Shown piece by piece: positions 16,502-51,014 of a stretch of DNA of 64,000 bases. Both the position numbers and the translations under genes were made by a program. The notes below the pieces were generated by a model. That model had not been told where the DNA came from. It made no database searches and worked only from the letters and a program-made list of their open reading frames with translations. The DNA comes from an uncultured Calditrichaceae bacterium (GTDB taxonomy: Bacteria; Calditrichota; Calditrichia; RBG-13-44-9), in assembly GCA_964624795.1 (NCBI GenBank), contig CAZUZS010000016.1, positions 6,855-70,854 on the forward strand, in the 5' to 3' direction. How positions within the stretch are numbered: position 1 is the stretch's first letter; the number at the start of each line of letters is the position of its first letter.

Positions 16502-18991
16502 TTGAACATTTTGGAATCAAAAATAAGGAACAAAGCCGGGTTCGCGGCGAAATTATTATTCCTCCTGTCATTGCCGGCGCTGGCGCTCGGATTTACGCCG
16601 CAACCGGACAGCCCGCTCGCCAATCATTCACATCCGAGGCTTCATCTCACACAAAAAAACCTGCCGGCCTTCCGCCAGGAATTGGGAAAGTATTTCAATA
16701 AGGAGTACCAGCAACTTGTAACCTGGGCGGCAAATGAGGATGTGGACAGCAAGGGAAATACGATTTCGGATTCCCGGCACAATCCTTTGCGGGCTTTGCT
16801 GGTTAACCAGGCATTCATCGCGGCAATTGGTAAGGTGGACGGCATTGGGTACCCGATTCCGTTGGAGGCATATGCCGAGAGAGCAATATCGCGGCTCATC
16901 GATCAGTTAAAGGACGGAGAAACGCTTTCCTACGCGGCAGCTTTAACATACGACTGGACATTTAACTTCATGACCGTGGCTCAACGCCAGGAAATAGCGA
17001 ATATGATGCTGGAGCGCAACATTTCAAACAAGGCCATTGATCACTCGATTGCAAATCCCGTCTTTACACCGGACCAGCTTTTCAGTTCCAAGTATTTCGA
17101 GGGCTGTTACGCCTGGTACATCGCCCTGGCATTTTGGGGAGACGGTTTCATCGACAAACAAGCAGACCGTGCAGTGGATACCTTTTATGACATCATGCTG
17201 AATTACGGTTACCTGGATGCACAAAATTTTGTGGCGGACGGCGCCGGCGGCTGGGCGGAATGGATTGGTTATTCAAGCTGGCACCCCCGCACACATCTGC
17301 TGCTGGTGGATGGATGGCGCACCGCCACCGGCGAAGATTTTATCTCAAAGAACACCCTTGATGATGGAAATGCGATAAAAAATTACCCGACTTTCATCTC
17401 CTACGCCGTCGACCCCTTTGAATACGCAAATAAGTTTTACACCTACCTGCGAATGGGCGACGCCGAAACAAGTGAAACATCCCTTGAGCACGGATCGATG
17501 CGCGAGCAGTTTTTCACATTAACCGGCATTTTGTCAAGATCGGGATTGATGGGCCAGGCGGGTCTGGTTAAAAGGGTGATTAAAAAATATAAAGCGGGGT
17601 GGCCAGATAAGGACTTGCCCAGCCTGTGGTTTTTTTTGGGAATGGAAGGTTCGGTTCCCGCAAAATCTCCGGAGGAATTGAATTTTAAAAAGTCGATGTG
17701 GTCCAGGAACCTGGGTGTTTTTATTGCCCGCACCGGTTTTGAAAATCAAGCCGACGGCGTGTTTTTCGTTACCGCCAGCCACTTTCTTTACGACGGACAC
17801 GACGGGCCGGACGACCGAATCGGATTCGGCCTTGTAAAATACGGGGCGCTTGTGAATACCCGCGAGGTCGCCCACCGGGGTTACGGAAACCTGGAAGATT
17901 ATCCTGGTGCTCATAGGGAAAATTCCGTCTTCTTCGAAGGAGATCACCGGCTTCATCACAAAATGCTGAATAATCCTTCCGACCTGAAGCAGGCATCAAA
18001 TGAAAGAAGAAATTTTGACCAGGGAGGAATTGAACAGGTAACCTCTTTGGACAACGCCTTTTTCCATGTGCGGGTAAATTTCGACCGCCAGCTGGACAGC
18101 ACAGTTTCTCACACCCGGGAATACGTCTGGCTGCCGGGGAATAACCCGTCAACAGACTCGGATTTTCTGGTAGTTTACGACCGTTGCAAGGCGCCTTCCC
18201 GCCCCCATTGGATTTATCACGTGCCCTGGAAACCCTCAGTAACCAATTTTAAATCGAGTGAAAACATCACTACCGGAAGAGGCACAAAAGATCGTCTGGG
18301 AGAAGGATTTACGGGAAAAAGCATGGTTATTAAATCCCTCAACGGCACCGGCGGCGAGAAGGACAGCGATGGCGGCAAGCAGGATTTTACCGCCGGACTG
18401 GGCGCGCACGGCGTATGCTTCTCCAGGACACTTCTGCCCGCCACCGCCAGAGTAGAGATTTCGAGGGTGGCTTCGCTGGACAAGCAGGTTCTGAAGCGCC
18501 AACACCATCTCGCCATCAAATCTCATCGCTGGCAGATCGATATTATGCCTGTGGAAAATAGCCGTGAGCAGCGGTTTTTGAACATTTTTCAGACCGCCGA
18601 TGCGAACACAACCTCGTCAATGGCACAATGCTCGGCAATTGATGCCGGCAGCTCACTGCAAGGAGTATGGATTGCCAGCGAGGCGAAAGACCGCCCAAAT
18701 ATTGCAGTTCTATTCAATAAACAGTATGAATTGATACGCGGGGCGATCCGGTATTCTGTGAATGGAATCGGCAAAGTGAGACATGTAATCGTTGGTCTGC
18801 GACCGGAATTTTCTTACGACATCAAAATCGATGGTCCGAGTGGTGCGAAGATACTTCACAAAAAGCCGGAAACGGATGTCCGTTTATGGGACTATAAAGG
18901 AATTCAGGAAAACAAGGAAAGTGGCGTCCTGTATTTCGAATCCGAAATCGGGGGACTGACGACCATTGACATTACACCCGCAGGAAATTAA
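16502..18991 (+). CDS. Secreted heparinase II/III-like (polysaccharide lyase-like) protein, copy 1
   Basis: Signal-peptide-like N-terminus; GGWAEWIGY, GVFIARTGF, FLVVYDR..PHWIYHVP and RWQIDIMP...RFLNIFQ blocks resemble the heparinase II architecture as recalled. Confidence 0.6.
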   Translation: MNILESKIRNKAGFAAKLLFLLSLPALALGFTPQPDSPLANHSHPRLHLTQKNLPAFRQELGKYFNKEYQQLVTWAANEDVDSKGNTISDSRHNPLRALLVNQAFIAAIGKVDGIGYPIPLEAYAERAISRLIDQLKDGETLSYAAALTYDWTFNFMTVAQRQEIANMMLERNISNKAIDHSIANPVFTPDQLFSSKYFEGCYAWYIALAFWGDGFIDKQADRAVDTFYDIMLNYGYLDAQNFVADGAGGWAEWIGYSSWHPRTHLLLVDGWRTATGEDFISKNTLDDGNAIKNYPTFISYAVDPFEYANKFYTYLRMGDAETSETSLEHGSMREQFFTLTGILSRSGLMGQAGLVKRVIKKYKAGWPDKDLPSLWFFLGMEGSVPAKSPEELNFKKSMWSRNLGVFIARTGFENQADGVFFVTASHFLYDGHDGPDDRIGFGLVKYGALVNTREVAHRGYGNLEDYPGAHRENSVFFEGDHRLHHKMLNNPSDLKQASNERRNFDQGGIEQVTSLDNAFFHVRVNFDRQLDSTVSHTREYVWLPGNNPSTDSDFLVVYDRCKAPSRPHWIYHVPWKPSVTNFKSSENITTGRGTKDRLGEGFTGKSMVIKSLNGTGGEKDSDGGKQDFTAGLGAHGVCFSRTLLPATARVEISRVASLDKQVLKRQHHLAIKSHRWQIDIMPVENSREQRFLNIFQTADANTTSSMAQCSAIDAGSSLQGVWIASEAKDRPNIAVLFNKQYELIRGAIRYSVNGIGKVRHVIVGLRPEFSYDIKIDGPSGAKILHKKPETDVRLWDYKGIQENKESGVLYFESEIGGLTTIDITPAGN

Positions 18992-19537
18992 TCGAGCGCT
19001 GACTGACTATTTTGAATCCGCCGAAAATTCTTCTCTAATTTTCTCGCAGCCCGGTTTTGGCCATTAAAATCCATTCGCCTTAACCGGTGATTTGGAATAC
19101 GCTCACCATTACGGAATATCATTAAATCGCTCCTGCCGAACGATGTGAGTGAAAATCGTCCTAAACATGTTCGGCAACTTTGTCGTCTTGTCAGGCGCTT
19201 AGAAATAATCGGCCTCATTCTGCAAAATTGCTGGCACAATAAAATGGTTGGATTAGAAGAATTCGCTCCTTTATTAAGCTCTGAATACCCCGACCGCCGG
19301 CATCTCGAATAATCCTGGCCATGCCATTTGGTATGGAAATTGCGCATTTTAAAACAGGGATTTGATGTTGAAGGGAAATAACATGATGTTTGAATTTGAA
19401 AATGGATTTTCTGTAAAGGGATTGCACATGAATTATGTTACGCCTTTCCCTACCGATCCATTCGAGAAACACTGCGCACAAATGCCAGAGAAGGGATTCA
19501 TTAGTAAGAAATGAAGTTTAACATGGAGGAGCCAAAA

Positions 19538-22060
19538 ATGATAAATGTTTTAAGCATGAAGAGCGTTTTAAAAAACCTGTTCATTCTATTCCTGATTCCG
19601 CTTGCGGCTTTTGCCTACACCCCGCAGCCCGGAAGTCCGCTGGCAAATCACAGCCACCCCAGGCTTCACTTAACCCAGGCAAGCCTGCCGGAAATCCGCA
19701 ATATTCTGTCGAGCGAATATGCCGCAGACTACCAGGCGCACGTAACGTGGGCGGCAAATCAGAGCACGAATAATGAAGATAATATCATCTCGGAAGCGGG
19801 GCACAATCCGCTAAGGGCATTAATGGTGCACCAGGCATTTATTGCAGCGGTTGGAACAGTTCCGGGTATCAACTATCCCATTTCTCTGGATGAATTTGCG
19901 AACCGGGCAATTTCGCGGCTGATCAGCCAGTTGAATTCCGGCGAAGAGCTTTCCTACGTGGCGGCATTGACTTACGATTGGACCTACAATTACATGACAA
20001 GCGCGCAAAGATCGCAAATCGCCAACCTGATGGTGAATCGCCGCGTTACGCACAAAGTATTTAATTTTTCTATTGCCAATCCCAACGCAAATCCGGAGCA
20101 AATGTTCAGCAGCAAATATTTTGAGGGGTGCTACCCGTGGTATATCGCGCTCGCCTTCTGGGGGGACGGTCTGATAGATGCTGCTGCGGACAACGCCGTT
20201 GATACATTTTTCAGCACAATGCTAAATTATGGTTACCTGGATGCGCATAATTTCGCAGCTGGCGATGGCGGCGGCTGGACGGAGTGGATCGGATATTCAA
20301 GCTGGCACCCCCGTACCCACCTGCTGCTCATCGATGGGTGGCGGACCGCCACAAACGAGGATTATGTAACACAGAATACGATGGGCGGGAACGCGATAAA
20401 GAATTACAGCAAATTCATGGCCTATGCTATGGACCCGCATAAATATTTTAACCAATATTATACTTATGTCAGAATGGGCGGCGCGCAAACAACCGATGCT
20501 TCGCTGGAGCATTTGTCCATGCAACAGCAGATGCTGACCCTGCCTCGCATTTATGTCAAATCGGGCATGGCAGATGAGGCTGGATTGTTGCGGCAGTTGA
20601 TCGATCAATATGATGTGGGATGGCCTCACTACCAGCAGGATATTCTATGGATCTATCTGGGACTTGCACGGTCAGTTGCGCCAAAAACTGCGGTGGAGTT
20701 GGGACTCCAGCATTCCCTGTGGTCGAAAAACATGGGCATTTTTTTAGCCCGAACCGGCTTCGACAACGACGCCGAAGGAGTGTTTTCGATAACCGCCAGT
20801 CATTTCACCTATGATGGTCACGAAGGTCCGGATGACTTCAACGGATTTGGGCTCGTCAAATTCGGAACCCTGGTAAACACCCGTTACGTGGCCCATCGCG
20901 GTTACGGCAATTTGAATGACTATCCCGGCGCGACGAAAGACAACACTGTCATTTTCGATGGCGGCCACAGCGTGATGCATCCTTCAATTGATGAGCCGTC
21001 CGAATTGCAGAGCGTATTCAACGGGCAGGGTTCATACGATCAGGGCGGGATCGAGCAGGTGACGGCAAGGGACGGAAGTTTTTATCATGTGCGAATAAAC
21101 CTGGACCGCCAGCTTGCCACCGGCTTCTCGCACACCCGGGAATATCTCTGGATGCCGGGGAGCAATCCCCAGACCGATTCCGATTTCCTGATAGTGTACG
21201 ATCGCACCAGTGGGTCCAGCACACCACATTGGACCTATCATGTTCCGTGGCTGCCCGAAGCCGGTAATTACTCCTCCTCGGAAGATATATCTACCGGTAG
21301 CGGAACAACAGACCGGATAGGCACGGCATATTTAGGTTCGAACATTCTCATAAAAGAACTCAACAGCCTGGGCGGTGAGCAGGACAATGACGGCGGGACG
21401 GCCAGCTACACTGGCGGCGGTGTAGCGCATGGCGTGGCATTCGTCCGGACCATTTTACCGGCGAACAGCCGGGTTGAGGTCACCCGGGTTGCTCGTTTTG
21501 ACAATGATGTGCTGAACAGGCAAGGCCCGCTGGCAATAAAATCCCACCGCTGGCAAGTGGATGTTATTCCCCAACAAACAGCTAACGAGCATGAGTTTCT
21601 CAATGTTTTCCAAACAGCCGATGCAAATTCCCACAGTTCGATGACGGCCACCTCCCTGATCGAGGTTGGAAATGTGATGCAGGGAGTCTGGATTCAAAAA
21701 GAGTCTGCGAACCAGCCGAACTACGTTGCTCTTTTCACGAAACAGAACCAGGTCACCAATAGTGCCGTTACCTATACCGTTAGCGGTACCGGGACAGTGA
21801 AGCATGTTATCGTCGGCCTGAATTCCTACACGAATTACGATATTGTAGATGAAAACAGCGGTAGTTCCACAACATTTTCCAGAACAACCGAACCGGGAAT
21901 CCAGGTTTGGGATTACAAGGGTGTGGCAACCAACTACACCGCGGGCGTTCTCTACTTCGAAACCAGCATTTCCGGCAGCCACACTTACCGGATAACCATT
22001 TCGGGAACACAAAACACAACTCCGCCCCAGACGCCGACCAACTTGCGCGTCACTCCTTAA
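19538..22060 (+). CDS. Secreted heparinase II/III-like protein, copy 2 (paralog of 16502..18991)
   Basis: Shares long identical blocks with copy 1 (PLANHSHPRLHLTQ, FSSKYFEGCY, EWIGYSSWHPRTHLL, AHRGYGNL, DQGGIEQVT, LAIKSHRWQ). Start at the ATG behind GGAGGAG (track start 19511). Confidence 0.6.
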   Translation: MINVLSMKSVLKNLFILFLIPLAAFAYTPQPGSPLANHSHPRLHLTQASLPEIRNILSSEYAADYQAHVTWAANQSTNNEDNIISEAGHNPLRALMVHQAFIAAVGTVPGINYPISLDEFANRAISRLISQLNSGEELSYVAALTYDWTYNYMTSAQRSQIANLMVNRRVTHKVFNFSIANPNANPEQMFSSKYFEGCYPWYIALAFWGDGLIDAAADNAVDTFFSTMLNYGYLDAHNFAAGDGGGWTEWIGYSSWHPRTHLLLIDGWRTATNEDYVTQNTMGGNAIKNYSKFMAYAMDPHKYFNQYYTYVRMGGAQTTDASLEHLSMQQQMLTLPRIYVKSGMADEAGLLRQLIDQYDVGWPHYQQDILWIYLGLARSVAPKTAVELGLQHSLWSKNMGIFLARTGFDNDAEGVFSITASHFTYDGHEGPDDFNGFGLVKFGTLVNTRYVAHRGYGNLNDYPGATKDNTVIFDGGHSVMHPSIDEPSELQSVFNGQGSYDQGGIEQVTARDGSFYHVRINLDRQLATGFSHTREYLWMPGSNPQTDSDFLIVYDRTSGSSTPHWTYHVPWLPEAGNYSSSEDISTGSGTTDRIGTAYLGSNILIKELNSLGGEQDNDGGTASYTGGGVAHGVAFVRTILPANSRVEVTRVARFDNDVLNRQGPLAIKSHRWQVDVIPQQTANEHEFLNVFQTADANSHSSMTATSLIEVGNVMQGVWIQKESANQPNYVALFTKQNQVTNSAVTYTVSGTGTVKHVIVGLNSYTNYDIVDENSGSSTTFSRTTEPGIQVWDYKGVATNYTAGVLYFETSISGSHTYRITISGTQNTTPPQTPTNLRVTP

Positions 22061-22934: not shown

Positions 22935-23912
22935 ATGCAATATTTCAACGAAAGCACCATCCGCTCCCAACTGACCGAAAGACGCCACAAGCTGAATGAA
23001 GCGCTGGCCAGGAATAAAGAGATGCCCGATCTCCACCGGCTTCTAAATGAAGTAGATCTGGCGTTGGAAAGAATGGATAACGGAACCTACGGCCTTTGCG
23101 AAACATGCCATGATGAAATTGAGCCGGAGCGTTTGGCAGTGGATCCGCTCCTGCGCTTCTGCCTCGACCACCTGAATTTTGATCAGCAACGTGCGCTCGA
23201 ACAGGATTTGGTGCTGGCGTCGCAAATACAGGGCGCGCTGCTGCCCAAAAGAGACATGTCCACCGGGATATGGGATGTTTCATATCACTATAAACCGGCC
23301 GGCCCGGTAAGCGGCGATTATTGCGACCTGGTGAGCAACAATAATGGTGAGCTATTTTTTATCTTGGGAGATGTTTCCGGGAAAGGGGTTTCGGCCTCTA
23401 TGTTGATGACGCATCTTCATGCCATATTCCACAGCCTGGTAACGTTCGATCTCTCTGCAAGCCAGTTGATGGAGAAAGTGAACTCTCTTTTTTGTGAAAG
23501 CACGCTTTCCACCCATTATGCGACTCTGGTATGCGGAAAAACCGGTCCCACCGGGGAGGTAGAAATCTGCAACGCCGGACACCCGCCCATTTTCCAGATC
23601 AGGGATGGAGAAGTTCTTGGCATTGAAGCGACCGGCCTTCCAATCGGGTTGTTTTGCAATGGACAGTACACCGCAAAACACATAAATTTGGCACCCGGTG
23701 AAAAACTCTTCCTTTATACTGACGGACTGTCCGAATCGTGGAACGAAAAAGAAGAATACGGAATAGACCGCATCGCAAGGCTGGCAGGTACGCTGTACGA
23801 CAAAAGTCCGGCTTTGCTGATAAGCTCGTATATGAAAGACCTCAGCACATTTATGTCCGGCCTGCCGGGAAAAGATGATTTATCCATGCTGGTTATTCAG
23901 CGGTCAAGATAG
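22935..23912 (+). CDS. PP2C/SpoIIE (RsbU-like) phosphatase with N-terminal DksA/TraR-type zinc finger
   Basis: C-terminal SGDYCD, LGDVSGKG, CNAGH, LYTDGL and DDLS motifs; N-terminal ALERMDNGTYGLCETC...ERL..P..RFCLDH. Confidence 0.88.
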   Translation: MQYFNESTIRSQLTERRHKLNEALARNKEMPDLHRLLNEVDLALERMDNGTYGLCETCHDEIEPERLAVDPLLRFCLDHLNFDQQRALEQDLVLASQIQGALLPKRDMSTGIWDVSYHYKPAGPVSGDYCDLVSNNNGELFFILGDVSGKGVSASMLMTHLHAIFHSLVTFDLSASQLMEKVNSLFCESTLSTHYATLVCGKTGPTGEVEICNAGHPPIFQIRDGEVLGIEATGLPIGLFCNGQYTAKHINLAPGEKLFLYTDGLSESWNEKEEYGIDRIARLAGTLYDKSPALLISSYMKDLSTFMSGLPGKDDLSMLVIQRSR

Positions 23913-24156
23913 AACCCAAATATTGGATTTTGCCGCCATAATCGGATGTTTCCGGATTGGTGGCTGCGACGCGTTCAAAATGCGCCACGGTGCAACCGGA
24001 ACCTTTTTCTTGAAACTGTTTGTAATTCAAAGAACAACTGCGATTGGCTTTTCATTGTACCGACTCTTATGTAAGATTCTTTTTCATTAAAATAGAATTT
24101 GTTTCCCGATCAAAATAAGGAGTGAGAATTAATCATCTAAACAGGAGGGCAATTCA

Positions 24157-25641
24157 ATGAAAAGCATCAAGTTATTTGCGATTCTGTTTCTTCTAATCAT
24201 CTTCATATCCTTTCCGGTTCAAAATGCGGGCGGGCAGGATTACGTATTAATTGGCTGGAACGACCTGGGAATGCACTGCTCCAATAAGAATTTCTCTAAA
24301 ATTGCGGTGCTGCCTCCCTACAACAACATCTATGCGCAATTAATAATGAAAATGCCGGGGCAGCTTCCGCAAGTTGTTACTACCGGATACGAGATATCGT
24401 ATTCAATTCCATATAATACGTATTCTGTTGGAAAAACCGATTTCTGGACCTATGCCCAGCAGCTTTTTGGTCTGGCCAATCCCTTGCCGGACAATATTGG
24501 CTTAACCGGGAAAGGGCTGACCGGAACTCTGGATATTAATGGCAATTACTTCCGGGCAGAGGGCATTCCGTTGACTCCCTACCCCGATACCAGCCTGACC
24601 CACGAAGAGCCGTTCCAGCTCATTCATCTGGAAGCGCGTGAGACCGGCGGAAGCACAATTCTGGCAACCACCGATGCCGTTATACCAGTAAGCAATGAAA
24701 TGGGCTGTGTCCAGTCGGGCTGCCACTCATCCGAGCAGGATATCTTGAACCAACATGAAAATGTTGCCGGATTTAATATCAACGGCCCAAATCTTTGCGC
24801 GAGCTGCCATGCAGACAATGCGCTTGGAACAACCGGAACGAGCGAAGCCGGAATATTTTCTTATCGGATGCACCGCCAACATGCGGAATTGAATCTGCCC
24901 AACACAATCGAAACATGCTACATGTGTCATCCAGGCCCGACAACACAGTGCCTTAGGGGTGTTATGCGAACCGGGATTTCAAATCCCCTAATTTGCCAGG
25001 ATTGCCACGGAAGCCTGAGCCAGGTTGCGCAATCGATCTCTGCCGGACGTGAACCCTGGCTGGAGGAGCCCCGTTGTGGCGATGCCGCCTGCCACGGGAG
25101 CAATTTTGCCGAAGAGCCCGGCCTTCTCTTCCGGCAATCGCAGGGCCACGGCGCATTATTTTGCTCTGCCTGCCACGGAAGTCCGCACGCCATCTTCCCC
25201 ACCCGAGAAGCGAACGACAATCTTCAGAACATAAGATTGCAAGGTTATGCCGGAATCCTGCGGGATTGTATGGTGTGCCACACTTCGGTGCCTTCCTCGC
25301 CGGGGCCTCATGGTGTAATGTTTACAAATATCACTGCAAGCAACAATGCTCTGCCGGGCGATTTCCGCCTGGCCCAAAACTACCCCAATCCTTTTAATCC
25401 GGTGACAAATATTTCCTTTGAAATATCGCAAACCGCTTTCGTAACCATGACGATTTACGACGTTTTGGGAAAAAGGGTGGAAACCATCGTGAACCAGAAA
25501 ATGAAACCGGGCAGATACGAAGTCAAATGGAATGCCGGGGAATCCACGAGCGGTTTGTATTTTTACAGATTGATGGTGGTTCCGGAGAATCCATCAATTG
25601 CTGTCTTTGAAATGATGAAGAAAATGGTTCTTATGAAGTAA
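24157..25641 (+). CDS. Multiheme c-type cytochrome with T9SS C-terminal sorting domain
   Basis: Signal peptide; 5 CxxCH and 2 CX4CH motifs; C-terminal QNYPNPFNPVTNISF...IYDVLGKRV...GLYFYRL...KKMVLMK. Confidence 0.88.
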   Translation: MKSIKLFAILFLLIIFISFPVQNAGGQDYVLIGWNDLGMHCSNKNFSKIAVLPPYNNIYAQLIMKMPGQLPQVVTTGYEISYSIPYNTYSVGKTDFWTYAQQLFGLANPLPDNIGLTGKGLTGTLDINGNYFRAEGIPLTPYPDTSLTHEEPFQLIHLEARETGGSTILATTDAVIPVSNEMGCVQSGCHSSEQDILNQHENVAGFNINGPNLCASCHADNALGTTGTSEAGIFSYRMHRQHAELNLPNTIETCYMCHPGPTTQCLRGVMRTGISNPLICQDCHGSLSQVAQSISAGREPWLEEPRCGDAACHGSNFAEEPGLLFRQSQGHGALFCSACHGSPHAIFPTREANDNLQNIRLQGYAGILRDCMVCHTSVPSSPGPHGVMFTNITASNNALPGDFRLAQNYPNPFNPVTNISFEISQTAFVTMTIYDVLGKRVETIVNQKMKPGRYEVKWNAGESTSGLYFYRLMVVPENPSIAVFEMMKKMVLMK

Positions 25642-25703: not shown

Positions 25704-25746
25704 AAAGACCGGTCCGGGATAAATATGAATTCCCGAACCGGTCTTT
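25704..25746. terminator. Probable bidirectional terminator between convergent genes
   Basis: aaagaccggt-c-cggga...tcccg-a-accggtcttt long stem with A and T flanks. Confidence 0.65.
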
Positions 25747-25835: not shown

Positions 25836-26852
25836 TCAGTATTTTGCCAGGTCTTCGCCTGCTTCGCTTCTTAACTTGTCCAGCAGTGCGATGTAAGCTT
25901 CGTGCTGTTTTGTTTGTTCCAACCTCTGCTTAATTTCGTCCCGAACTTCGTCAAGTGGACGTGTTTCCTTTTTTCTGTTAATCACCTTTAAAATATGGTA
26001 ACCATAGCGGGTTTCAATGATTCCGCTGAATTGGCCTACCGGGACGCTGAAAGCAGCATCTTCAAACGGCTTTACCATCTGGCCGCGGGGAAAATTCTCA
26101 TACAAACCGGCATTTTGCTTAACGCCCGGGTCTTCCGAATACTTTTTCACCAGTTGTTCAAAATTCTCGCCTTTTTTCGCACGCGCCAGGAGATCTTCCA
26201 TTTTTTTGTAAATTTCCTGTTTCGCCGAATCACTTTTTCCCTGTGTGCTGAGCAGGAGATGTCTTACCGTTGCGGTTTTGTCTTCGTTATAAGCTTCTTT
26301 GATCTCATCTTCCGTCACTTCGGTATCTTGTGCCAGAGCATTTTTTAGATATTGCTGGATGGTGAGTCCGGTTCGTATTTGTTCTTTGACAAAATCCAGC
26401 TTCACACCATTTTTGGTCAATAACTCCGCAAATTTTTCTTCGCCACCGGCTCGCTTATACTGTTCGTTTAAGGCGCTGTCCAATTCTGCTTGTGGCAGGA
26501 CTATGTTGGTTTTTTCGGCAGCAGTCAGCAATATTTTTTTATCCGCCAGATCTTCAGCAATCTTATTTATGATCTCCTTTATCCGTGTGCTGTCCATATT
26601 CTTCAACTGATTGGCCTGGTTTCCGTAACTCGCCTGAATCTGTTCGAAGACCTCACCGGTTGTGATGTTAAAATCGGTCGCGGACACGATAATGTTGTTT
26701 TTGTCCGGATCATAAAACGGTGTTTTGGTTGAAATATCCTTTGCCAACTGGTATGCTGCTGTCCCTTCTTCCAGTTTTACATTTGACTGTTTCTTTCCGC
26801 AGCCAAATACGAGTATATTCAGCAACACGGCAAAGACGAAAATTTTCTTCAT
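25836..26852 (-). CDS. Parvulin-type peptidyl-prolyl isomerase lipoprotein (PrsA/SurA-like)
   Basis: Lipobox VFGC; SurA-like helical N-terminus; ATVRHLL, YSEDPG, GQMVKPFEDAAF and TRYGYHILKV motifs. Confidence 0.9.
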   Translation of the reverse strand: MKKIFVFAVLLNILVFGCGKKQSNVKLEEGTAAYQLAKDISTKTPFYDPDKNNIIVSATDFNITTGEVFEQIQASYGNQANQLKNMDSTRIKEIINKIAEDLADKKILLTAAEKTNIVLPQAELDSALNEQYKRAGGEEKFAELLTKNGVKLDFVKEQIRTGLTIQQYLKNALAQDTEVTEDEIKEAYNEDKTATVRHLLLSTQGKSDSAKQEIYKKMEDLLARAKKGENFEQLVKKYSEDPGVKQNAGLYENFPRGQMVKPFEDAAFSVPVGQFSGIIETRYGYHILKVINRKKETRPLDEVRDEIKQRLEQTKQHEAYIALLDKLRSEAGEDLAKY

Positions 26853-27219
26853 GCTTATCCCCTTAAATAGTTGTTGTTTTCATTCCGGTTAATCCTAAAG
26901 CTTAACAAAGTAGCAAAATAATTTAATTATTCATAATGTTAAAATAAAACCCCGACTCCCCAAAGAGCAGGTAAAATCGATATCCAATGGCACTTCAAAA
27001 AAATAGCACAGTATTTCGAATTACTGTGCCAATTATAATAAACTCCTCTTAAAACTATCTCAACCCGGTTTCATATATTTATGATAATTACGATAGTTCC
27101 GCAAAAAAATAAATGCTTTTGGGAAGCTCGGGATTATCGGAATTTTCTGGTAGTTGCTTGCTTCAAAGCTTTATTTTTTGGATATTTCAGGTCGATTTTT
27201 TTACAAACGGAGGTTTCAA

Positions 27220-29232
27220 ATGCGTTTTTTGGTTTTTGCAATTCTGCCGTTCTTTCTTCTGCTTTCGTGCAGTTCCTCTAAAGAGGATGCTTATAAAGAA
27301 ATGCGCAAGATGGAGTATGCCAGGAATATTAATCATGGGAAATTTGTTCATTTGTTGAACAGCAAGGATGCCGATATCCGCTTAAGAGCTGTTGAAACGC
27401 TCGGCAGGGTGCAGGATTCCACGACGATAGTGCTTGTGGCAAATCAACTTTCGGATGAAGATTTCAGAATTCGCGAAGCGGCAGCTTTTGCATTAGGGCA
27501 GTTTCCTTCACGAAACATCGAACAATTGATCGAGGACGGCATGCGCTATGAAACAAATGATAGCGTTCGTCTCCAGTCTTTAGAAGCTTTGGGAAAAGTT
27601 GGTACCGACAAATCCTATTTACGTTTCACGGATTACCTCCAGGATACGAAATCGGACTTCGTGAAAGCGGCAGCCGTTGCTTGTGGAATTTCCGCATACC
27701 GGGGCTACCCTCCATTTTCTGCGGTAAACAGCCTTGTCGCCCAGCTTAAAATGTCAACAGAACCCGATGTTAGATGGCGGTGTGCTTATGCACTGTACCG
27801 AATCGGATCGCCTGCAGCATTGGCAGAACTTTACCAGGCTTTGGATAAAGCCGATCCCATGACCCGATTTTTCGATCTCAAGGCCTTGAATGCGATTGTC
27901 GGGCTGATGCAATCTCACCAGTTCGATAAATACAGAAATACCGAATCAGCAAGAAAGATACAGGTTGCCGCCCAATCACCTGAATTTGTTAACGCCCTTG
28001 AAGAAACCATGCAGGATTCCGCATGGTACGTCCGTTACGCCGATTTAAAATTGATGGGAACACTGGCATATCCCACTTTGTGGCACACGGTTGAACAGGG
28101 CTTAAAAGATCGCCAGGCACACGTGAGAGAGGCTGCTTTGGAGGCTGCTGCTAATTATCATAATTCTGCTTCCGAAGTATTGTTGACTGATTTCATCATA
28201 GGAACTGATAATTGGAGAGAGAAAGGAATAGCGCTTGGATCGCTCGCCGAAATCGATTCGATGAAAGTATTAGATATTATAAAAAAATCGATTGACGGCA
28301 GTTCCTGGCCGGAAAATTATTATCTCATAAAAGTGCTGCAGGAGATTGATTCGCCGGCTTCTACAAATTTGTTGATAAAGATGGCGGAAGTCCCCAACAT
28401 GGCGCAGGTGAGTTTGGTGTTTGAAGGTTTGGTTAATCAATCCACCGTTCCATTGGGTTTGCTAATTGAAAAATTACAGCTAAATGATCCCGCGGTAACA
28501 ACTATTATTGCCAGTAAGCTGGCTTTAGTCAAAGATACCACAACCGTGCCGGCACTAATTTCTACATATAAGAAACTACATGCTCCTGTTGATATTGAGC
28601 CGATGCAGCAGATTTTGGTAGCTTTGGACAGCATAAACAGCAGGAAAGCTGTGCCGCTCCTGGAACAAGAATTGGCCAATCCGTTTCCGTTAATTCATAA
28701 TTCGGCTAGAGAAGCACTCAAACACATTACCTCGCAGGACTATCAACTGCCTGCTGTTGCCAATCAGTCGATGACGCGCTGGAATTTTCCATCGGTGGAT
28801 CCAAAATCAAGACCAAAAATTAAATTCACAACTACCAAAGGTGATTTTGTAATTGTTCTATATCCTGATAAAGCTCCGGTAACTGTCGCTAATTTTATTC
28901 AGCTCGTTAATTCAGAATTTTATAACGATATCTATTTTCACCGGGTGATCCCCGGCTTTGTTATTCAGGGAGGAGATCCAAGAGGCGACGGCTGGGGCGG
29001 CCCGGGTTACACCATCCCGTGTGAATACAACGACATATTTTATGACCGCGGTGTTGTTGGCGTCGCACATGCTGGCAAGGATACGGGGGGAAGTCAATTT
29101 TTTATAACACAGACACCTCAACCACATTTGAATGGAAAACATACGGCATTTGGCCGGGTAATTTCCGGAATGAAGGTTGTTGATAAAATACAAATATTCG
29201 ATAAAATTTTAAAGGCGGAACTTATAAAATAA
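27220..29232 (+). CDS. HEAT-repeat lipoprotein with C-terminal cyclophilin PPIase domain
   Basis: Lipobox LLSC after the ATG behind GGAGG; repeated HEAT/PBS units; FHRVIPGFVIQGGDP, GGSQFFIT and HLNGKHTAFGRV motifs. Confidence 0.88.
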   Translation: MRFLVFAILPFFLLLSCSSSKEDAYKEMRKMEYARNINHGKFVHLLNSKDADIRLRAVETLGRVQDSTTIVLVANQLSDEDFRIREAAAFALGQFPSRNIEQLIEDGMRYETNDSVRLQSLEALGKVGTDKSYLRFTDYLQDTKSDFVKAAAVACGISAYRGYPPFSAVNSLVAQLKMSTEPDVRWRCAYALYRIGSPAALAELYQALDKADPMTRFFDLKALNAIVGLMQSHQFDKYRNTESARKIQVAAQSPEFVNALEETMQDSAWYVRYADLKLMGTLAYPTLWHTVEQGLKDRQAHVREAALEAAANYHNSASEVLLTDFIIGTDNWREKGIALGSLAEIDSMKVLDIIKKSIDGSSWPENYYLIKVLQEIDSPASTNLLIKMAEVPNMAQVSLVFEGLVNQSTVPLGLLIEKLQLNDPAVTTIIASKLALVKDTTTVPALISTYKKLHAPVDIEPMQQILVALDSINSRKAVPLLEQELANPFPLIHNSAREALKHITSQDYQLPAVANQSMTRWNFPSVDPKSRPKIKFTTTKGDFVIVLYPDKAPVTVANFIQLVNSEFYNDIYFHRVIPGFVIQGGDPRGDGWGGPGYTIPCEYNDIFYDRGVVGVAHAGKDTGGSQFFITQTPQPHLNGKHTAFGRVISGMKVVDKIQIFDKILKAELIK

Positions 29233-37902: not shown

Positions 37903-39354
37903 CTAGTGCTTAACACGATGCGCAAAGCCATCATTCCACATGGGATCCAGAAGCTTGCCGATTTTGTTATCGTAGTCGGTTAATTTTTCAAAATACTCCG
38001 GATCTTCAATTGCCCGAGCCGCATCTGGGTCCATGGGTTTGGCCTCGAAACGCTTGATAGTCTTGTGAGCAAATTTATAATGGTCGCGGATGGGGCACGG
38101 TCGGAACAGATTTTTCACATCATGCCCATTTTTTCTATTAGTATAAGCATCTTGCCAGGAGCGTATGGATTTAAAATATTTTGATTTAATCACGGAAGTG
38201 AGGTTGTCGCCACTTTCATAAAGATCATAAATATTTGCGATATGGTAAGGAAAAAATACGCATGGCGCCACATTGCCATTCCAGTCAATGTAAAAGTAAC
38301 CGCCGGAGCGCGCTGCTCCAATGCAGCCGAGCGACATGGGGCCGCCATTCCAGAAATCGATCAGGAATAAATTTTTATTGTATATCATTTCCAATTCCTG
38401 TTCCAGCATCCATCGCCGCTGCTCGGGGGTTACCATCATATCGATGGTAAAGCTCCGGCCAATGGGCATGTATTGGAAAATCCACCCGTATATGGCCCCC
38501 TTCTGGTTGAAATAGTAGTCCATAAAATCCTCGGAGAGGACCGTTTCGGCATTGTCTTTGGTTGCCGTTACCGATATACCAAATGGCACACCTTCGGCCC
38601 GCAGGTTGTCCATTGCTTCCTGGATTTTGCGATAAACGCCCTTGCCGCGCCTGTAATCCGTTTCTTTTTCCCATCCCTCAACTGATATGGCTGGGGTGAG
38701 ATTGCCAACCTCAGCCATTCTTTTGGCCATATCTCTGTCGATTAGCGTTGAGTTGGTGTACATCATAAAATAGTTGTCATTATTGGTTTTCAGGATGTCA
38801 AACAGGTCTTTTCCATCACTGCTGTACATCAAAGGCTCACCGCCGGAAATGACAGTAAAATGGGATCCCCAAATCTGCCGTTTTTCGTCGATAATTTTTT
38901 GAAAAATATTATAGGACAAGGTGTTATCATTTTTTACAGAACTGGCGGCATAGCAACCCTTGCAAGCCAAATTGCATTTCTTGGTGGGGCTTATTGTCAA
39001 GAAAGAAGGCGGGTTGAATCCGAATTCTTCCCGAAAAGGTTGTTGGCGTTCATGTTCGCCCAAAATTACTTTTCCAATAAAATTCTTAATAATGTTCTTT
39101 CTTACCTGCGGAGAAATCCTGCCATCGGCTAGCGCATTGTTCACTGTGTGAAGCAGGTTCGTTAGCGCCCGGTAGCGCATTTCCTGAACTTTTACCGGGA
39201 GATCCTCCTCATTTTCGACGAGGAAAAAATTGTGGAATCCCCGCTCTCCTTTTTTTAATGCCCACTGCCGAAATGCCTGCGACCGCACAGCAATGTCCAA
39301 AACTCCGGTTGACATCGATTGCCACAAGCTGCTGAAATCCAAGGACTGTTTCAT
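37903..39354 (-). CDS. Radical SAM protein with SPASM/twitch-type C-terminus (possibly Mss-like)
   Basis: CNLACKGC, SGGEPL and YTN motifs; DFWN...CIG...YIDWNGNVAPC...RPCPIRD auxiliary-cluster region. Confidence 0.9.
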   Translation of the reverse strand: MKQSLDFSSLWQSMSTGVLDIAVRSQAFRQWALKKGERGFHNFFLVENEEDLPVKVQEMRYRALTNLLHTVNNALADGRISPQVRKNIIKNFIGKVILGEHERQQPFREEFGFNPPSFLTISPTKKCNLACKGCYAASSVKNDNTLSYNIFQKIIDEKRQIWGSHFTVISGGEPLMYSSDGKDLFDILKTNNDNYFMMYTNSTLIDRDMAKRMAEVGNLTPAISVEGWEKETDYRRGKGVYRKIQEAMDNLRAEGVPFGISVTATKDNAETVLSEDFMDYYFNQKGAIYGWIFQYMPIGRSFTIDMMVTPEQRRWMLEQELEMIYNKNLFLIDFWNGGPMSLGCIGAARSGGYFYIDWNGNVAPCVFFPYHIANIYDLYESGDNLTSVIKSKYFKSIRSWQDAYTNRKNGHDVKNLFRPCPIRDHYKFAHKTIKRFEAKPMDPDAARAIEDPEYFEKLTDYDNKIGKLLDPMWNDGFAHRVKH

Positions 39355-39373
39355 TATAACCTCCCAATTTGGT

Positions 39374-40762
39374 TTATGATTTACTATGATTGATTAGCCT
39401 GGAAATAAAAACAATGGTGCGAATATAATCGACGAGTTTTTTGATCTGGGTCGGCCTGATTACTACCTCCTTAAGCGCTTTTATAATGTTGGAGAGTCTC
39501 ATATAGTATCGCCTATAAGCCGTCCTTACCAACCTTTCCAAATGGTTGACCTGAAAGTTGGGATTTTTAAACACCAGGTGCAGGCCGTCGTACAGATCCC
39601 AGTCCCGGGTTGTTAGTTGTTGAGATTTATCCAGCTGCTGAAAAAGACGAGAGCCAGGGTAAGGAGTGAGCAATGAGAATTGACATGTTTCCGGCTTTAG
39701 TCTTATCGCAAGTCTTATTGTTTTCTTTACCATTTTGGAATTCTCATGCAGCTCCCCAAGTATGAAGCTACCATAAATTCTTATATTGTTTTCTCTTAAT
39801 AATTTGACTGCCTGCTCCTGTTGCTCCAACGTGATCCGCTTTTGATAATTATTGAGGATATCCTGGTCAGCGCTTTCCAGGCCCAGGAAAACCGTGCTGG
39901 CGCCGGCATCGGCCATTTTTTTGACCATTTCCGGATGCCTTACCAGCGTATCGACCCTTGAAAAGCACCACCACCGGATATCCCATTTCCGGGAAATAAC
40001 TTCATCGCAAAAATCAATGGTGCGGCGGTAATTCAGTGTGAAATTATCATCAATAAAAATAAAGGAGGAATGACCATTCCGAAGAAGATAATCCAATTCG
40101 GAGAAAACCGAGTCCAGTGACCGGGTCCTCCATTTCAGGCCCGCCAGTCTGCTGCTAGCGCAAAAATAGCAATCGTAGGGGCAGCCGCGGCTGGTTACTA
40201 TGGTCGCCATTCTTCGGCCTTCGAAAGTGGACAGGTAATGATCTGCTTCAAACAATTCTCTCTTGGGAATGGGGAGCTCATCAAGATTTTTGATGAGTTC
40301 TGCTGGTTCGTTACGATGCAGTAATCCGTTAGGTTTATACGCAAGTCCTTTTATTCTGCTCAAGTCGCCCCCATGTTCCAGCATGTCGACTAGATTGACC
40401 AGAGTATGCTCTCCTTCGCCTTTGATAACAAAATCGGCCGCTCCTTTTGTAAAGGGCTCCTCGTCCAAGAACGACGTATGGTAACCTCCGAAAACTACTT
40501 TGGCGCCTTCGGACCTCGCTTTCTGACCGATTTGAACTGCAGAATTAAAACGAGGCGTATCGCTAGAAATACCGACCAGATCAAAATCCTTGAATTTGAT
40601 TTTCTTTTCATCAATTGATTCTGTTTGATAATCTGTGACAGATACCGAGTGTCCGGCTTGTTCAAGCATGGCTGCCAGATATCCGATACCAAGTGGCATC
40701 AGATTCAGGCCGACCTCGCTATAATAATTTTTAGTGGGTGGATCGATTAAAAGTACGCGCAT
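39374..40762 (-). CDS. Cobalamin-binding radical SAM protein (class B methyltransferase-like)
   Basis: N-terminal B12 domain (PLGIGYLAA...GGYHTS...GEGE); TSRGCPYDCYFC, DDNF, GLES and TPYPGS motifs. Confidence 0.9.
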   Translation of the reverse strand: MRVLLIDPPTKNYYSEVGLNLMPLGIGYLAAMLEQAGHSVSVTDYQTESIDEKKIKFKDFDLVGISSDTPRFNSAVQIGQKARSEGAKVVFGGYHTSFLDEEPFTKGAADFVIKGEGEHTLVNLVDMLEHGGDLSRIKGLAYKPNGLLHRNEPAELIKNLDELPIPKRELFEADHYLSTFEGRRMATIVTSRGCPYDCYFCASSRLAGLKWRTRSLDSVFSELDYLLRNGHSSFIFIDDNFTLNYRRTIDFCDEVISRKWDIRWWCFSRVDTLVRHPEMVKKMADAGASTVFLGLESADQDILNNYQKRITLEQQEQAVKLLRENNIRIYGSFILGELHENSKMVKKTIRLAIRLKPETCQFSLLTPYPGSRLFQQLDKSQQLTTRDWDLYDGLHLVFKNPNFQVNHLERLVRTAYRRYYMRLSNIIKALKEVVIRPTQIKKLVDYIRTIVFISRLINHSKS

Positions 40763-44856: not shown

Positions 44857-45375
44857 TTATTGTTTCTTTCCCAACCAGGGCACATTTGCATAAATTGGAA
44901 TTCCCTTCGAGATCCACTGGTAATATGTCAGAATAGCTAACATCTCCTTGCTGTCTGGAGCCATAGGCTTGCCTTTCAGGGCACCCTTGAGACATGCATT
45001 GGTCTGCATTACCAGATCCACCGTCCCATTCGCTCTCTTTTTAAATTTCGGAAATACCGCCGCTACTCCTACCAGCGGAAGTGCCTGTTCATCCATTCCG
45101 GCGTTTTTATGGCAGGTGCTACAATTCATATCATTTCCCACGTATTCTTTCGCGTACTCCTGGGTATTTTGGACAATATTGTAGCCCATCATCACCATAT
45201 CTTTGATTTCCGCGGGTGCATCCTGCGGCTTTGGTGGACTAAATTTTAGCGTGCTTTCTGTTGCTTGATCCTGTGCTTTCCCGCCTGAAAAAAGGAATAA
45301 AGAAGATAACAGTATTCCCATTATGAGTATGACTCTCGCCGAAAAAGGATTAAAAAACGATAGCAGCTTTTTCAT
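44857..45375 (-). CDS. Monoheme c-type cytochrome resembling the N-terminal (heme 1) domain of TsdA
   Basis: Signal peptide; YVGNDMNCSTCH; downstream Cys in QTNACLKGALKG; DSKEMLAILTYYQWISKG; ends after PWLG. Confidence 0.75.
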   Translation of the reverse strand: MKKLLSFFNPFSARVILIMGILLSSLFLFSGGKAQDQATESTLKFSPPKPQDAPAEIKDMVMMGYNIVQNTQEYAKEYVGNDMNCSTCHKNAGMDEQALPLVGVAAVFPKFKKRANGTVDLVMQTNACLKGALKGKPMAPDSKEMLAILTYYQWISKGIPIYANVPWLGKKQ

Positions 45376-45540
45376 GTTGCCTCCTTAGTGATTTGGTTGG
45401 TTCTAAACCTGTAAATCGTTTGTTACCAAAAACAATCGGATTTTCTCAGATTGCACTTAGTGTATGTTAAAAGTGGTTTTACATCCTTCCGCCATTTTTG
45501 CTCGCTCGATGCACGGTATTCAAAAAAAGGGCAATTTTTG

Positions 45541-46086
45541 TCAGTCCGTCATAAGGGCATAGCCCTTTAACTGGAATGTGGGCAATACAACTTGAGCCGA
45601 AAGCGCCACTGTTATATCGGCATTTACCCAATTTTCCTGGTAATTGAAATCGGCAAGCGACTGCCCGCAGACAAAAAGCTGAACTCCGGCCTTTTTCAAC
45701 TGACTGATAATATTCGTATTGGGATTATCCTTGCCGGTTTTTTCTTTGTAAATATCATTATTCAGAACAATTGAAGTGGCATCGGAATGGATTATAACTA
45801 CCAGCTTCATCTGGGCCGGCTGTACTCCGGCCGTTGCGAATACATTGATAAATCTTGCTACATGCCAGAGTGCCGCATTAATGCCATCTGAGTTTTCTGT
45901 CGATTTCTTTACATCAAAAATCACCCTGTATTCAAGATCTTTATCGGGCTGGATTGCTGCTTCAGGCAATGGATGCGCCTTTCCGTAATCCTTAATTACC
46001 GGGTGCACCCATTCCTGGGATGATGAATTACTTGCGCCAGCCGAAAGAAGCAAAACCACTATGAATAAAAGCCACGGATTTCTCAT
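45541..46086 (-). CDS. Periplasmic DsrE/DsrF-like family protein
   Basis: Signal peptide; VIFDV, LVVIIHS and AGVQLFVCGQS with the conserved Cys. Start at MRNPW behind GGAGG (track start 46146). Confidence 0.8.
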   Translation of the reverse strand: MRNPWLLFIVVLLLSAGASNSSSQEWVHPVIKDYGKAHPLPEAAIQPDKDLEYRVIFDVKKSTENSDGINAALWHVARFINVFATAGVQPAQMKLVVIIHSDATSIVLNNDIYKEKTGKDNPNTNIISQLKKAGVQLFVCGQSLADFNYQENWVNADITVALSAQVVLPTFQLKGYALMTD

Positions 46087-46190
46087 AAAAAAGCCTCCTC
46101 CCAATATTGTTTTGCGGGCGGGCAAATTGCGCCACATATAACCCATTCCAGGAGAAATATTGTTGGCAGCAATTACCCGGTCCGGCTTAT

Positions 46191-46688
46191 TTATTTGGTT
46201 TTTTCCTGCGAAGCATACTCCCGCAAGTATTCCAGTATCGCCCTCGCCTGCTCTTCCGATATTCCCAGGCTGGGCATGGGAATGTGATACTGAGAAATCA
46301 TTTTTTTGACATTCTCATCTTTTTGCTCCATTTCCGAAGTGTTTATTATCATGTTCATGATAAACTCCGGAGTTCTCTGGTTCACCACGTCGCCCAGCGG
46401 TGGCCCTACCACTTTGTTGTTCATGCTGTGGCAGGAAGTGCAGGTGCTGTTGAACACGCGTTTCCCTTCTGCTGCGAGCTTGGGATCGATCGGCCCCAAT
46501 TTCAGTTCCTTAACCGGGCCGAATCCCTTGTCCTCGCTTTGCGCACTATCTTTTTGTGGATCCTGAGCTTTCTTTTGGATCGTCTTGCTGGTGTTTTCTG
46601 TGGCAGCCTTTTGATCCTGGTCTGCCTGGCCGAAAACAGTTGCAGAAAACAATCCAATGAGTATGACTACAACAAATGAATATTTCAT
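46191..46688 (-). CDS. Class I monoheme cytochrome c
   Basis: Signal peptide; CTSCH; VGPPL; probable Met ligand in YHIPMP. Confidence 0.88.
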   Translation of the reverse strand: MKYSFVVVILIGLFSATVFGQADQDQKAATENTSKTIQKKAQDPQKDSAQSEDKGFGPVKELKLGPIDPKLAAEGKRVFNSTCTSCHSMNNKVVGPPLGDVVNQRTPEFIMNMIINTSEMEQKDENVKKMISQYHIPMPSLGISEEQARAILEYLREYASQEKTK

Positions 46689-46803
46689 GCTAACCTCCTT
46701 TAAAAATTGTGTTATTAAATTAGAAATTTATTAATTTACCCTTCATCTTTTGCACTACAAACGAAACGCCAATGCCCGAACTACTCCACCGGTTGATTAT
46801 CCC

Positions 46804-47574: not shown

Positions 47575-47673
47575 GACCTCTTTCCTCCCCTAATATTTCT
47601 TACTCTTCGTCTTGCCATAACGACCCGCACCCGTCAAACCGGTTTCTTGCTGTCGCTATAGCGTCAATAGATT

Positions 47674-50973: not shown

Positions 50974-51014
50974 AATTTCCTCCTTCTCCACTAACTCTGA
51001 ATTCCTCTCCCGCT

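Follow-up and report, generated by a model that had tools for sequence, protein, structure and literature searches.

A gene in a 64,000-nt stretch of DNA from an uncultured Calditrichaceae bacterium (contig CAZUZS010000016.1, positions 6,855 to 70,854 of the forward strand; the whole stretch is called the window below) encodes a protein of 494 amino acids that is almost certainly a multihaem cytochrome c and very likely type IX secretion system (T9SS) cargo. It begins with a signal peptide, continues with a beta-sandwich domain and a domain carrying seven haem motifs, and ends with a T9SS type-A sorting domain. Taken as a whole, the best explanation is a Sec-exported seven-haem c-type cytochrome that leaves the cell as T9SS cargo and serves in extracellular electron transfer (EET), and we consider this reading reasonably probable; the single claim that the cytochrome acts in extracellular electron exchange stands, in our judgement, at about even chances. 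The core of the protein, which consists of the N-terminal domain (N-domain) and the haem module, is a large conserved family without a name. The whole case for surface electron transfer is based on sequence.

Haem sites, their ligands and the N-terminal domain

The initial annotation of this gene claimed five CXXCH and two CX4CH haem motifs between positions 24706 and 25281, and we found all seven exactly there (Table 1). Of its 16 cysteines, 14 belong to the haem motifs, which leaves C41 and C265. The chance expectation for seven such motifs in 494 amino acids is about 0.01 (an estimate), and what is observed is far above it. In 566 aligned domains of the family, the motif cysteines and histidines of all seven sites are near-invariant wherever they are aligned.

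The two CX4CH motifs had been called atypical. They are present and conserved, but they are not exotic, as they alternate with CXXCH in orthologues. Site 1 is CXXCH in members of the Chloroflexota and Eisenbacteria types, and at site 5 (C307) close orthologues differ, some having CX4CH and others, such as P0011, P0019 and P0026, CXXCH. In members of the two types just named, CXXCH stands at each of the seven sites. Because both CX4CH sites interchange with CXXCH in relatives, they are genuine haem sites. Among class III cytochromes, too, CX4CH belongs to the standard spacings.

Seven histidines outside the motifs (residues 40, 200, 239, 242, 331, 344 and 385) are also near-invariant in the 566 domains. 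These would suffice for bis-histidine ligation of all haems, and seven six-coordinate haems are the simplest reading of the alignment. No open coordination site is evident, so an electron wire describes the cytochrome better than an enzyme would. Two features expected of a multihaem c-type cytochrome, conserved haem motifs and conserved candidates for the distal ligands, were found in this protein. The two cysteines outside the motifs co-vary: both are cysteine in 283 pairs, neither is cysteine in 10, and mixed pairs do not occur (0), which suggests a C41-C265 disulfide.

Comparison with known families places the haem domain near two of them. The match to Cytochrome_C7 (PF14522; 25.7 bits against a gathering score of 24.8, residues 213-284) is borderline and indicates likeness at the level of the domain only. 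The family of MtrC/MtrF domains II/IV (PF22113) matched residues 188-314, which hold haems 1-5, with 25.6 bits and stayed below its cut-off of 30. The same family was matched at E<=1e-3 by 28 of 47 relatives, and several more distant relatives exceeded the cut-off (P0193, 36.7; P0238, 34.2; P0155, 30.9). As some relatives exceed this cut-off, the haem domain is probably distantly related to that family. The scores for TIGR03507 (12.6 against 209.3) and for the Geobacter CX4CH/CXXCH family TIGR01904 (15.8 against 27) were below the cut-offs. Searches of the PDB with the single sequence, with a full-length profile (A1) and with a diverse haem-domain profile (A3) gave no significant sequence relative (best E 0.3-0.8).

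The N-domain gave a confident model with AlphaFold 2 (AF2) when modelled alone, with a predicted local distance difference test score (pLDDT) of 92.9 and a predicted TM score of 0.88. It matched no Pfam or NCBIfam family. Foldseek against the PDB returned generic immunoglobulin-like (Ig-like) matches only, the best with E 4.7e-3, and among the 50 matches listed the TM score was at most 0.45 by query length and at most 0.50 by target length. The N-domain constitutes a new domain family that lacks a counterpart in Pfam, NCBIfam and the PDB. It precedes the haem domain in all but 3 of 146 representatives, those 3 being short, single-domain proteins; since the N-domain almost always occurs with the haem domain, the two form one evolutionary unit. 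A homologue search with the N-domain alone recovered nothing but short proteins, and the ten that we read seem to be pieces of longer genes, left by truncation or a frameshift. These matches were used solely for diversifying the alignment.

The motif WNDLGMHC, pointed out in the initial annotation, lies near the mature N-terminus as GWNDLGMHC and is almost invariant. In the 566 aligned domains W34 is kept in 427, M39 in 457, H40 in 456 and C41 in 443, the remainder being mostly gaps. H40 is a candidate for the distal ligand of a haem, and C41 for the disulfide partner of C265. A copper site in the N-domain was considered and rejected. The full-length model had matched CopC, PmoB/AmoB and an AA10 lytic polysaccharide monooxygenase, and the motif reads M-H-C; the confident model of the N-domain alone gave generic Ig-like matches and C41 co-varies with C265, and the copper site was ruled unsupported.

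H40 could also be used between molecules. If exported subunits polymerised into a surface cytochrome filament, H40 would ligate the haem of the neighbouring subunit, as a histidine near the N-terminus does in OmcS filaments. H40 is near-invariant, stands at about position 14 once the signal peptide is removed, and belongs to the GMHC segment, which is the lowest-confidence stretch in both AF2 models. Nonetheless, a staple within one molecule accounts more simply for the perfect covariation of C41 and C265, the searches detected no filament cytochrome of similar sequence, and the forms of the family that carry SLH or T9SS anchors (see below) suggest envelope-tethered monomers. We regard a filament as highly improbable.

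Export signals and the varying C-termini of the family

The signal peptide, MKSIKLFAILFLLIIFISFPVQNAGG, has a lysine-rich start and a hydrophobic core, and it contains no cysteine (no lipobox). It was called by visual judgement together with the alignment, in which hydrophobic and variable N-termini are followed by the conserved mature start Q(Q/E/D)Y; these Sec-type features agree with the signal peptide that had been annotated. Cleavage probably exposes Q27, and an N-terminal glutamine agrees with the Q-rule as described for Bacteroidetes and Ignavibacterium album (PMC5837995).

At the other end, the type-A T9SS C-terminal domain (CTD), for which a check with TIGR04183 had been proposed, was confirmed by two curated models. 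The scores over residues 409-472 were 32.6 bits for PF18962 (cut-off 27) and 31.3 for TIGR04183 (cut-off 23). The CTD reaches the last residue (494) and stands behind a disordered linker, and AF2 models it as a confident beta-sandwich over residues ~416-492 (pLDDT 82-97 over 421-490). The linker is where cleavage of the PorU type would be expected; in relatives this position holds fibronectin type III (FN3), Ig or other inserts. The protein thereby has the sequence features of type-A T9SS cargo, a CTD over the cut-off at the C-terminus and a Sec signal recognised by eye and alignment.

Relatives of the protein are numerous. The best 120 in the database share 54-69% identity with it across the full length, and none of the seven haem positions is lost in them; public annotation has no name for them beyond 'T9SS type A sorting domain-containing protein' or 'hypothetical protein'. 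When the core (residues 27-395) was used in an exhaustive HMMER scan, 344 clusters (50% identity level) reached E<=1e-30 and 913 reached E<=1e-10, and a scan of one genome per species gave at least 591 species with a relative. Labels of Bacteroidales, Prolixibacteraceae and Ignavibacteria are common among the carriers. The match usually extends into the CTD in carriers with these three labels and in those labelled Kapaibacteria, Calditrichaeota, Zixibacteria, Eisenbacteria, Krumholzibacteria, Fibrobacter and Gemmatimonadetes; it ends at about residue 385-391 in Chloroflexota, in Sumerlaeota and in a deltaproteobacterial metagenome-assembled genome (MAG). With a strict family-specific CTD model, 31 of the 52 loci with labels of the Fibrobacteres-Chlorobi-Bacteroidetes (FCB) group have the CTD, and none of the 7 Chloroflexota loci does. 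Three CTD-bearing loci have non-FCB labels, and these are probably binning errors.

Other anchoring modules occur in relatives either instead of the CTD or added to it: an SLH domain in P0172 (98 bits) and a dockerin in P0155 (30.4 bits). Long forms place FN3 or Ig spacers ahead of the CTD, and in P0121, L030 and L054 the core is duplicated in tandem, giving two copies of N-domain plus seven-haem module, 14 haem sites and 900-1035 amino acids. SLH, dockerin and CTD all display proteins outside the cytoplasmic membrane, so their exchange would be hard to explain if the core were periplasmic only. The variation of the C-terminal appendage, as read from these sequences, supports a role at the cell surface or outside the cell.

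The tag could nevertheless be idle. In that case the protein would be a periplasmic electron carrier whose C-terminal beta-sandwich is either an Ig-like domain with a structural role or, in a host with no working T9SS, the relic of a tag. Most multihaem cytochromes are periplasmic. The CTD also matches FlgD_ig weakly (19.7 bits), the window holds no T9SS core gene, and the type species of the likely phylum is reported to be without the Bacteroidetes-type gliding machinery (see below). However, both T9SS cut-offs are passed by a domain at the extreme C-terminus behind a disordered linker, PF18962 is matched by 37 of the 47 relatives, often behind FN3 or Ig spacers, and elsewhere the same core carries SLH or dockerin, while the CTD is missing from all 7 Chloroflexota-labelled members. 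In addition, a CTD-bearing member of the family is present in a Calditrichaeota MAG (L034), and other cargo with Por_Secre_tail is found in related lineages (L001, L085), of which L085 is a relative of the host lineage. A periplasmic carrier with a functionless tag therefore appears distinctly unlikely to us, and export by the T9SS remains the preferred reading.

Two further features of the C-termini were noticed. Relatives of the Chloroflexota type that have no CTD often end in a short '(V/I)YLP(L/V)xxR' tail (L075, L078, L080; P0152, P0154, P0167, P0173, P0183), and in other Chloroflexota-type relatives 'YLPLIF/YLPFIM' follows just after the N-terminal hydrophobic segment (P0281, P0300, P0330); this YLP-type motif may be a lineage-specific sorting or anchoring motif. 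An unannotated module of ~150 amino acids (WN[LM]VS[VL]P..GYW[IL]KF..GWNLVGSIS..AYWVK), with no Pfam match, closes CTD-less FCB members (P0114-P0120, L009, L012) and lies between FN3 and CTD in forms of 750-865 amino acids (P0011, P0023, P0083).

A proposed route to the surface and the genomic setting

In the route that we propose, the signal peptide would direct the protein to the periplasm through Sec, where haem would be attached covalently at the five CXXCH and two CX4CH sites. The protein would then fold with all haems six-coordinate and seven histidines as distal ligands, among them H40 of the N-terminal beta-sandwich, and the C41-C265 disulfide would staple the N-domain onto the haem domain. 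The folded protein would be recognised by its C-terminal beta-sandwich and pass the outer membrane by the T9SS, and after removal of the tag the cytochrome would be anchored at the surface or released. Outside the cell, minerals, humics, shuttles or other cells, for example, could take electrons from it or supply them. T9SS cargo is described as folding in the periplasm before export, and the system as present in several FCB phyla beyond Bacteroidota (PMC11285876). The physiological partner, the direction of electron flow and the choice between anchoring and release are inferred, and the proposal describes the path of the protein, not a link for electrons across the outer membrane.

The genomic neighbourhood offers no such link. 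We clustered all open reading frames (ORFs) of 84 family loci, setting aside spurious frames that overlap the cytochrome gene. Even the most frequent neighbour clusters, which by their sequences encode a sigma-54-type regulator, a short-chain dehydrogenase and an aldehyde dehydrogenase, are present in 8 of the 84 loci at most, and the idea of conserved operon partners was rejected. A second multihaem gene (at least three CXXCH) lies within 10 kb in only 5 of the 84. The initial annotation had taken export through the T9SS as a route to EET distinct from porin-cytochrome systems. One part of this stands, since the CTD marks the protein as cargo and the architectures of relatives back a surface location. 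The other part does not: the T9SS moves protein, not electrons, and to treat it as the electron route conflates protein export with conduction. No conduit partner was found, and few loci have a second multihaem gene. Shewanella MtrC is exported by a type II secretion system (T2SS) and still needs MtrAB.

The same stand-alone arrangement bears on what an exported cytochrome would do. It could be a soluble redox protein outside respiration that is secreted by the T9SS and serves in Fe(III) reduction for uptake, as a diffusible shuttle or an electron sink in fermentation, or in the detoxification of oxidants. The gene has unrelated housekeeping neighbours and no linked conduit across the outer membrane, one clade (L001, L002) has it divergent to two genes for TonB-dependent receptors, many carriers have the Bacteroidales, Prolixibacteraceae and Ignavibacteria labels given above, and type-A CTD cargo may be released as well as anchored (PMC10202324). 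On the other hand, seven close haems with full axial ligation would be the trait of an electron wire and unusual for an iron-uptake accessory, and the linkage to TonB receptors is confined to three closely related loci. We think a non-respiratory role of this kind rather unlikely and continue to favour a surface cytochrome for electron exchange.

Several points weigh against that preference. The 64-kb window contains none of the T9SS core genes (SprA/Sov, PorK/L/M/N, PorU/V) and no Ccm/Ccs genes. The host probably belongs to Calditrichota, and Caldithrix abyssi is reported to have no gliding machinery of the Bacteroidetes type, a machinery that has core parts in common with the T9SS (PMC5317091). 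No conserved partner gene for electron transfer across the outer membrane was found in the 84 loci. The full-length AF2 model has a pLDDT of 75.3 and is of moderate confidence in its haem-domain part; M270 is replaced by histidine in 24 relatives, which makes it a candidate eighth axial ligand and the ligation scheme given above provisional. Finally, no experimental study of any family member was found in the literature searched.

The features of the gene are collected in Table 1. It had been annotated as monocistronic with a terminator of its own, and this description holds well: a gap of 244 nt separates it from the upstream gene on the same strand, it has its own Shine-Dalgarno sequence, a hairpin and a convergent gene follow at the 3' side, and the neighbours vary among relatives. 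The hairpin has arms of 16 nt that are 94% complementary and a folding energy of -25.1 kcal/mol (z -4.76); none of 200 shuffled sequences folded as well. A simple terminator scan did not pick up this hairpin, probably because its 11-nt loop exceeds the limit of 3-8 nt set in that scan.

Table 1. Features of the cytochrome gene, its product and its flanks (positions in the window)
Feature	Residues	Position	Strand	Basis or remark
Cytochrome ORF, 494 aa + stop codon		24157..25641	+	ORF list
Shine-Dalgarno AGGAGG		24143..24148	+	8 nt 5' of ATG, read from sequence
Sec signal peptide (predicted)	1-26	24157..24234	+	by eye and alignment
N-terminal domain, Ig-like beta-sandwich	27-180	24235..24696	+	AF2
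GWNDLGMHC motif	33-41	24253..24279	+	almost invariant
Seven-haem domain	181-390	24697..25326	+	Pfam and motifs
Haem site 1, CVQSGCH (CX4CH)	C184	24706..24726	+	motif and alignment
Haem site 2, CASCH	C214	24796..24810	+	motif and alignment
Haem site 3, CYMCH	C254	24916..24930	+	motif and alignment
Haem site 4, CQDCH	C280	24994..25008	+	motif and alignment
Haem site 5, CGDAACH (CX4CH)	C307	25075..25095	+	motif and alignment
Haem site 6, CSACH	C336	25162..25176	+	motif and alignment
Haem site 7, CMVCH	C371	25267..25281	+	motif and alignment
Flexible linker	391-408	25327..25380	+	AF2 pLDDT <50 at 391-400
T9SS type-A C-terminal sorting domain, ends KKMVLMK	409-494	25381..25638	+	PF18962, TIGR04183, AF2
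Hairpin, likely bidirectional terminator		25704..25746	.	between convergent genes

The base composition of the gene (GC 49.6%, GC at third codon positions 55.6%) is in line with that of its neighbours and gives no sign of recent horizontal transfer. On the other side of this question, a Calditrichia MAG that shares synteny with the window for the peptidyl-prolyl isomerase (PPIase), HEAT-cyclophilin, THDPS and ThyX genes has other genes at the position of the cytochrome, and the closest homologues of the cytochrome, at ~63% identity, are from Ignavibacteria. An exact-sequence look-up found no identical sequence on record.

The genes next to the cytochrome are unrelated housekeeping genes, for a GNAT acetyltransferase, a SpoIIE/PP2C-type phosphatase-DksA protein, a SurA-like PPIase and a HEAT-cyclophilin. 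The phosphatase gene (22935-23912, plus strand) lies directly upstream on the same strand, and its product has an N-terminal DksA/TraR C4 zinc finger. The two PPIase genes 3' of the cytochrome (25836-29232) encode the SurA-like parvulin, which is convergent with it, and the fusion of HEAT repeats with a cyclophilin. The best named relatives of the SurA-like protein are from Calditrichia and Caldithrix, at 55-60% identity, which together with the synteny of the Calditrichia MAG makes a Calditrichota host probable. As the pair of PPIase genes is syntenic in that MAG, where other genes occupy the cytochrome's position, its adjacency to the cytochrome is probably coincidental.

The host is a diderm, because the window encodes a TolC-like OEP, MlaDEF and the SurA-like protein; BON proteins are a further diderm marker in the window. 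A DsbD_2/CcdA-like membrane protein (62056-62910, minus strand) is the product of the only gene in the window linked to cytochrome c biogenesis. Two small c-type cytochromes, one weakly SoxA-like and one like monohaem c550/c551, are encoded on the minus strand in the region of 44857-45375, 46191-46688 and 46804-48447, where they adjoin two tandem BON-domain proteins (44857-48447). Their presence indicates that the host matures c-type cytochromes.

Elsewhere in the window, two adjacent paralogues of 829 and 849 amino acids (16502-18991 and 19511-22060, plus strand) belong to no Pfam family and have weak C-terminal matches to HepB (heparin/heparin-sulfate lyase; 36 and 43 bits, with the cut-off at 600). 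A radical SAM/SPASM enzyme adjoins a B12-binding radical SAM enzyme at 37903-40762 (minus strand), and the pair may be a peptide-modification or cofactor cluster. A phosphoketolase ORF of 952 amino acids (48616-51474, minus strand) overlaps a P-type ATPase ORF (51015-53519, minus strand) by ~460 nt; the Pfam match of the phosphoketolase starts only at residue 171, so translation probably begins well downstream of the first start codon in frame. The gene at 55436-56161 (minus strand) is that of a CPBP/myxosortase-like intramembrane protease.

Comparison with known systems

EET is understood mainly from Shewanella and Geobacter, whose surface cytochromes depend on the T2SS and on porin-cytochrome complexes. 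For the extracellular multihaem proteins of Bacteroidota and Ignavibacteria, we know of no mechanism. Such proteins are predicted to be common in Bacteroidota including Ignavibacteria, in a study that does not name their export route and in which both groups increase under dosing with Fe(III) (PMC11495043).

The window protein shares with MtrC, OmcA and MtrF of Shewanella its nature as a multihaem c-type cytochrome, the combination of beta-rich and haem domains and, as predicted, delivery to the exterior of a diderm cell. The haem region at residues 188-314 resembles domains II/IV of MtrC/MtrF, and several relatives pass the cut-off of that family. However, the Shewanella proteins have ten haems in four domains, with two split beta-barrels, whereas the window protein has seven haems, one beta domain and one haem domain. 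MtrC has a lipoprotein signal and is exported by the T2SS, and its gene is clustered with those of the periplasmic decahaem cytochrome MtrA and the porin MtrB; in contrast, the window protein has no lipobox cysteine and carries a T9SS tag, and no mtrA/mtrB-like genes were found next to its gene. Its N-domain is an Ig-like sandwich that gave no Foldseek match to MtrC. Membership of the MtrC family was rejected, as the scores are below the cut-offs and the protein departs from that family in its number of haems, the layout of its domains, the type of signal and the gene context.

OcwA of Thermincola potens and OmhA of Carboxydothermus ferrireducens are stand-alone multihaem terminal reductases on the surface of monoderms and, like the window protein, lie outside porin-cytochrome complexes (PMC7829351; PMC6703420). 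The likeness extends to the SLH module for cell-wall anchoring that some relatives of the core carry. The OcwA chain 6i5b_A matched the window protein with E 2.4, which is not significant, and the haem numbers of OcwA and OmhA differ from that of the window protein. OcwA and OmhA are supported by experiment, whereas the window protein is known from its sequence alone. With class III cytochromes (c3/c7) and the TIGR01904 family, the protein shares the packing of several bis-histidine haems and the mixture of CX4CH with CXXCH; unlike it, the proteins of these groups are small and periplasmic, have three or four haems, and lack an N-terminal beta domain and an export tag.

Full-text searches found no literature that links the T9SS to multihaem cytochromes or that has a c-type cytochrome as T9SS cargo, and the genome papers of Melioribacter, Caldithrix and Labilibaculum do not describe a cytochrome of the window type. 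The T9SS CTD and the multihaem cytochrome are each familiar; their combination is undescribed, and the core, above all the N-domain, is uncharacterised. We tentatively raise the possibility, which we hold to be doubtful as yet, that across FCB phyla (in MAGs with the labels Bacteroidales, Ignavibacteria, Calditrichota, Zixibacteria, Eisenbacteria and others) the T9SS installs a dedicated seven-haem cytochrome at the surface. This would give largely fermentative or organotrophic bacteria an unrecognised capacity for EET, with a link across the outer membrane that is not of the Mtr/Pcc type, and the SLH- or dockerin-tagged core might do the same job elsewhere. The family is a large, conserved and testable candidate for filling a gap of long standing, the question of how FCB bacteria might deal with electron acceptors outside the cell, and its C-terminal tag names the export machine.

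The layout of Sec signal, linker and TIGR04183/PF18962 beta-sandwich is that of established T9SS cargo such as RgpB and HBP35 of Porphyromonas gingivalis and enzymes of Flavobacterium johnsoniae. HBP35 binds haem non-covalently. The window protein differs from canonical cargo in that it is predicted to carry seven covalent cofactors and, if this is true, it would be the first covalently cofactor-loaded cytochrome to pass through the T9SS translocon.

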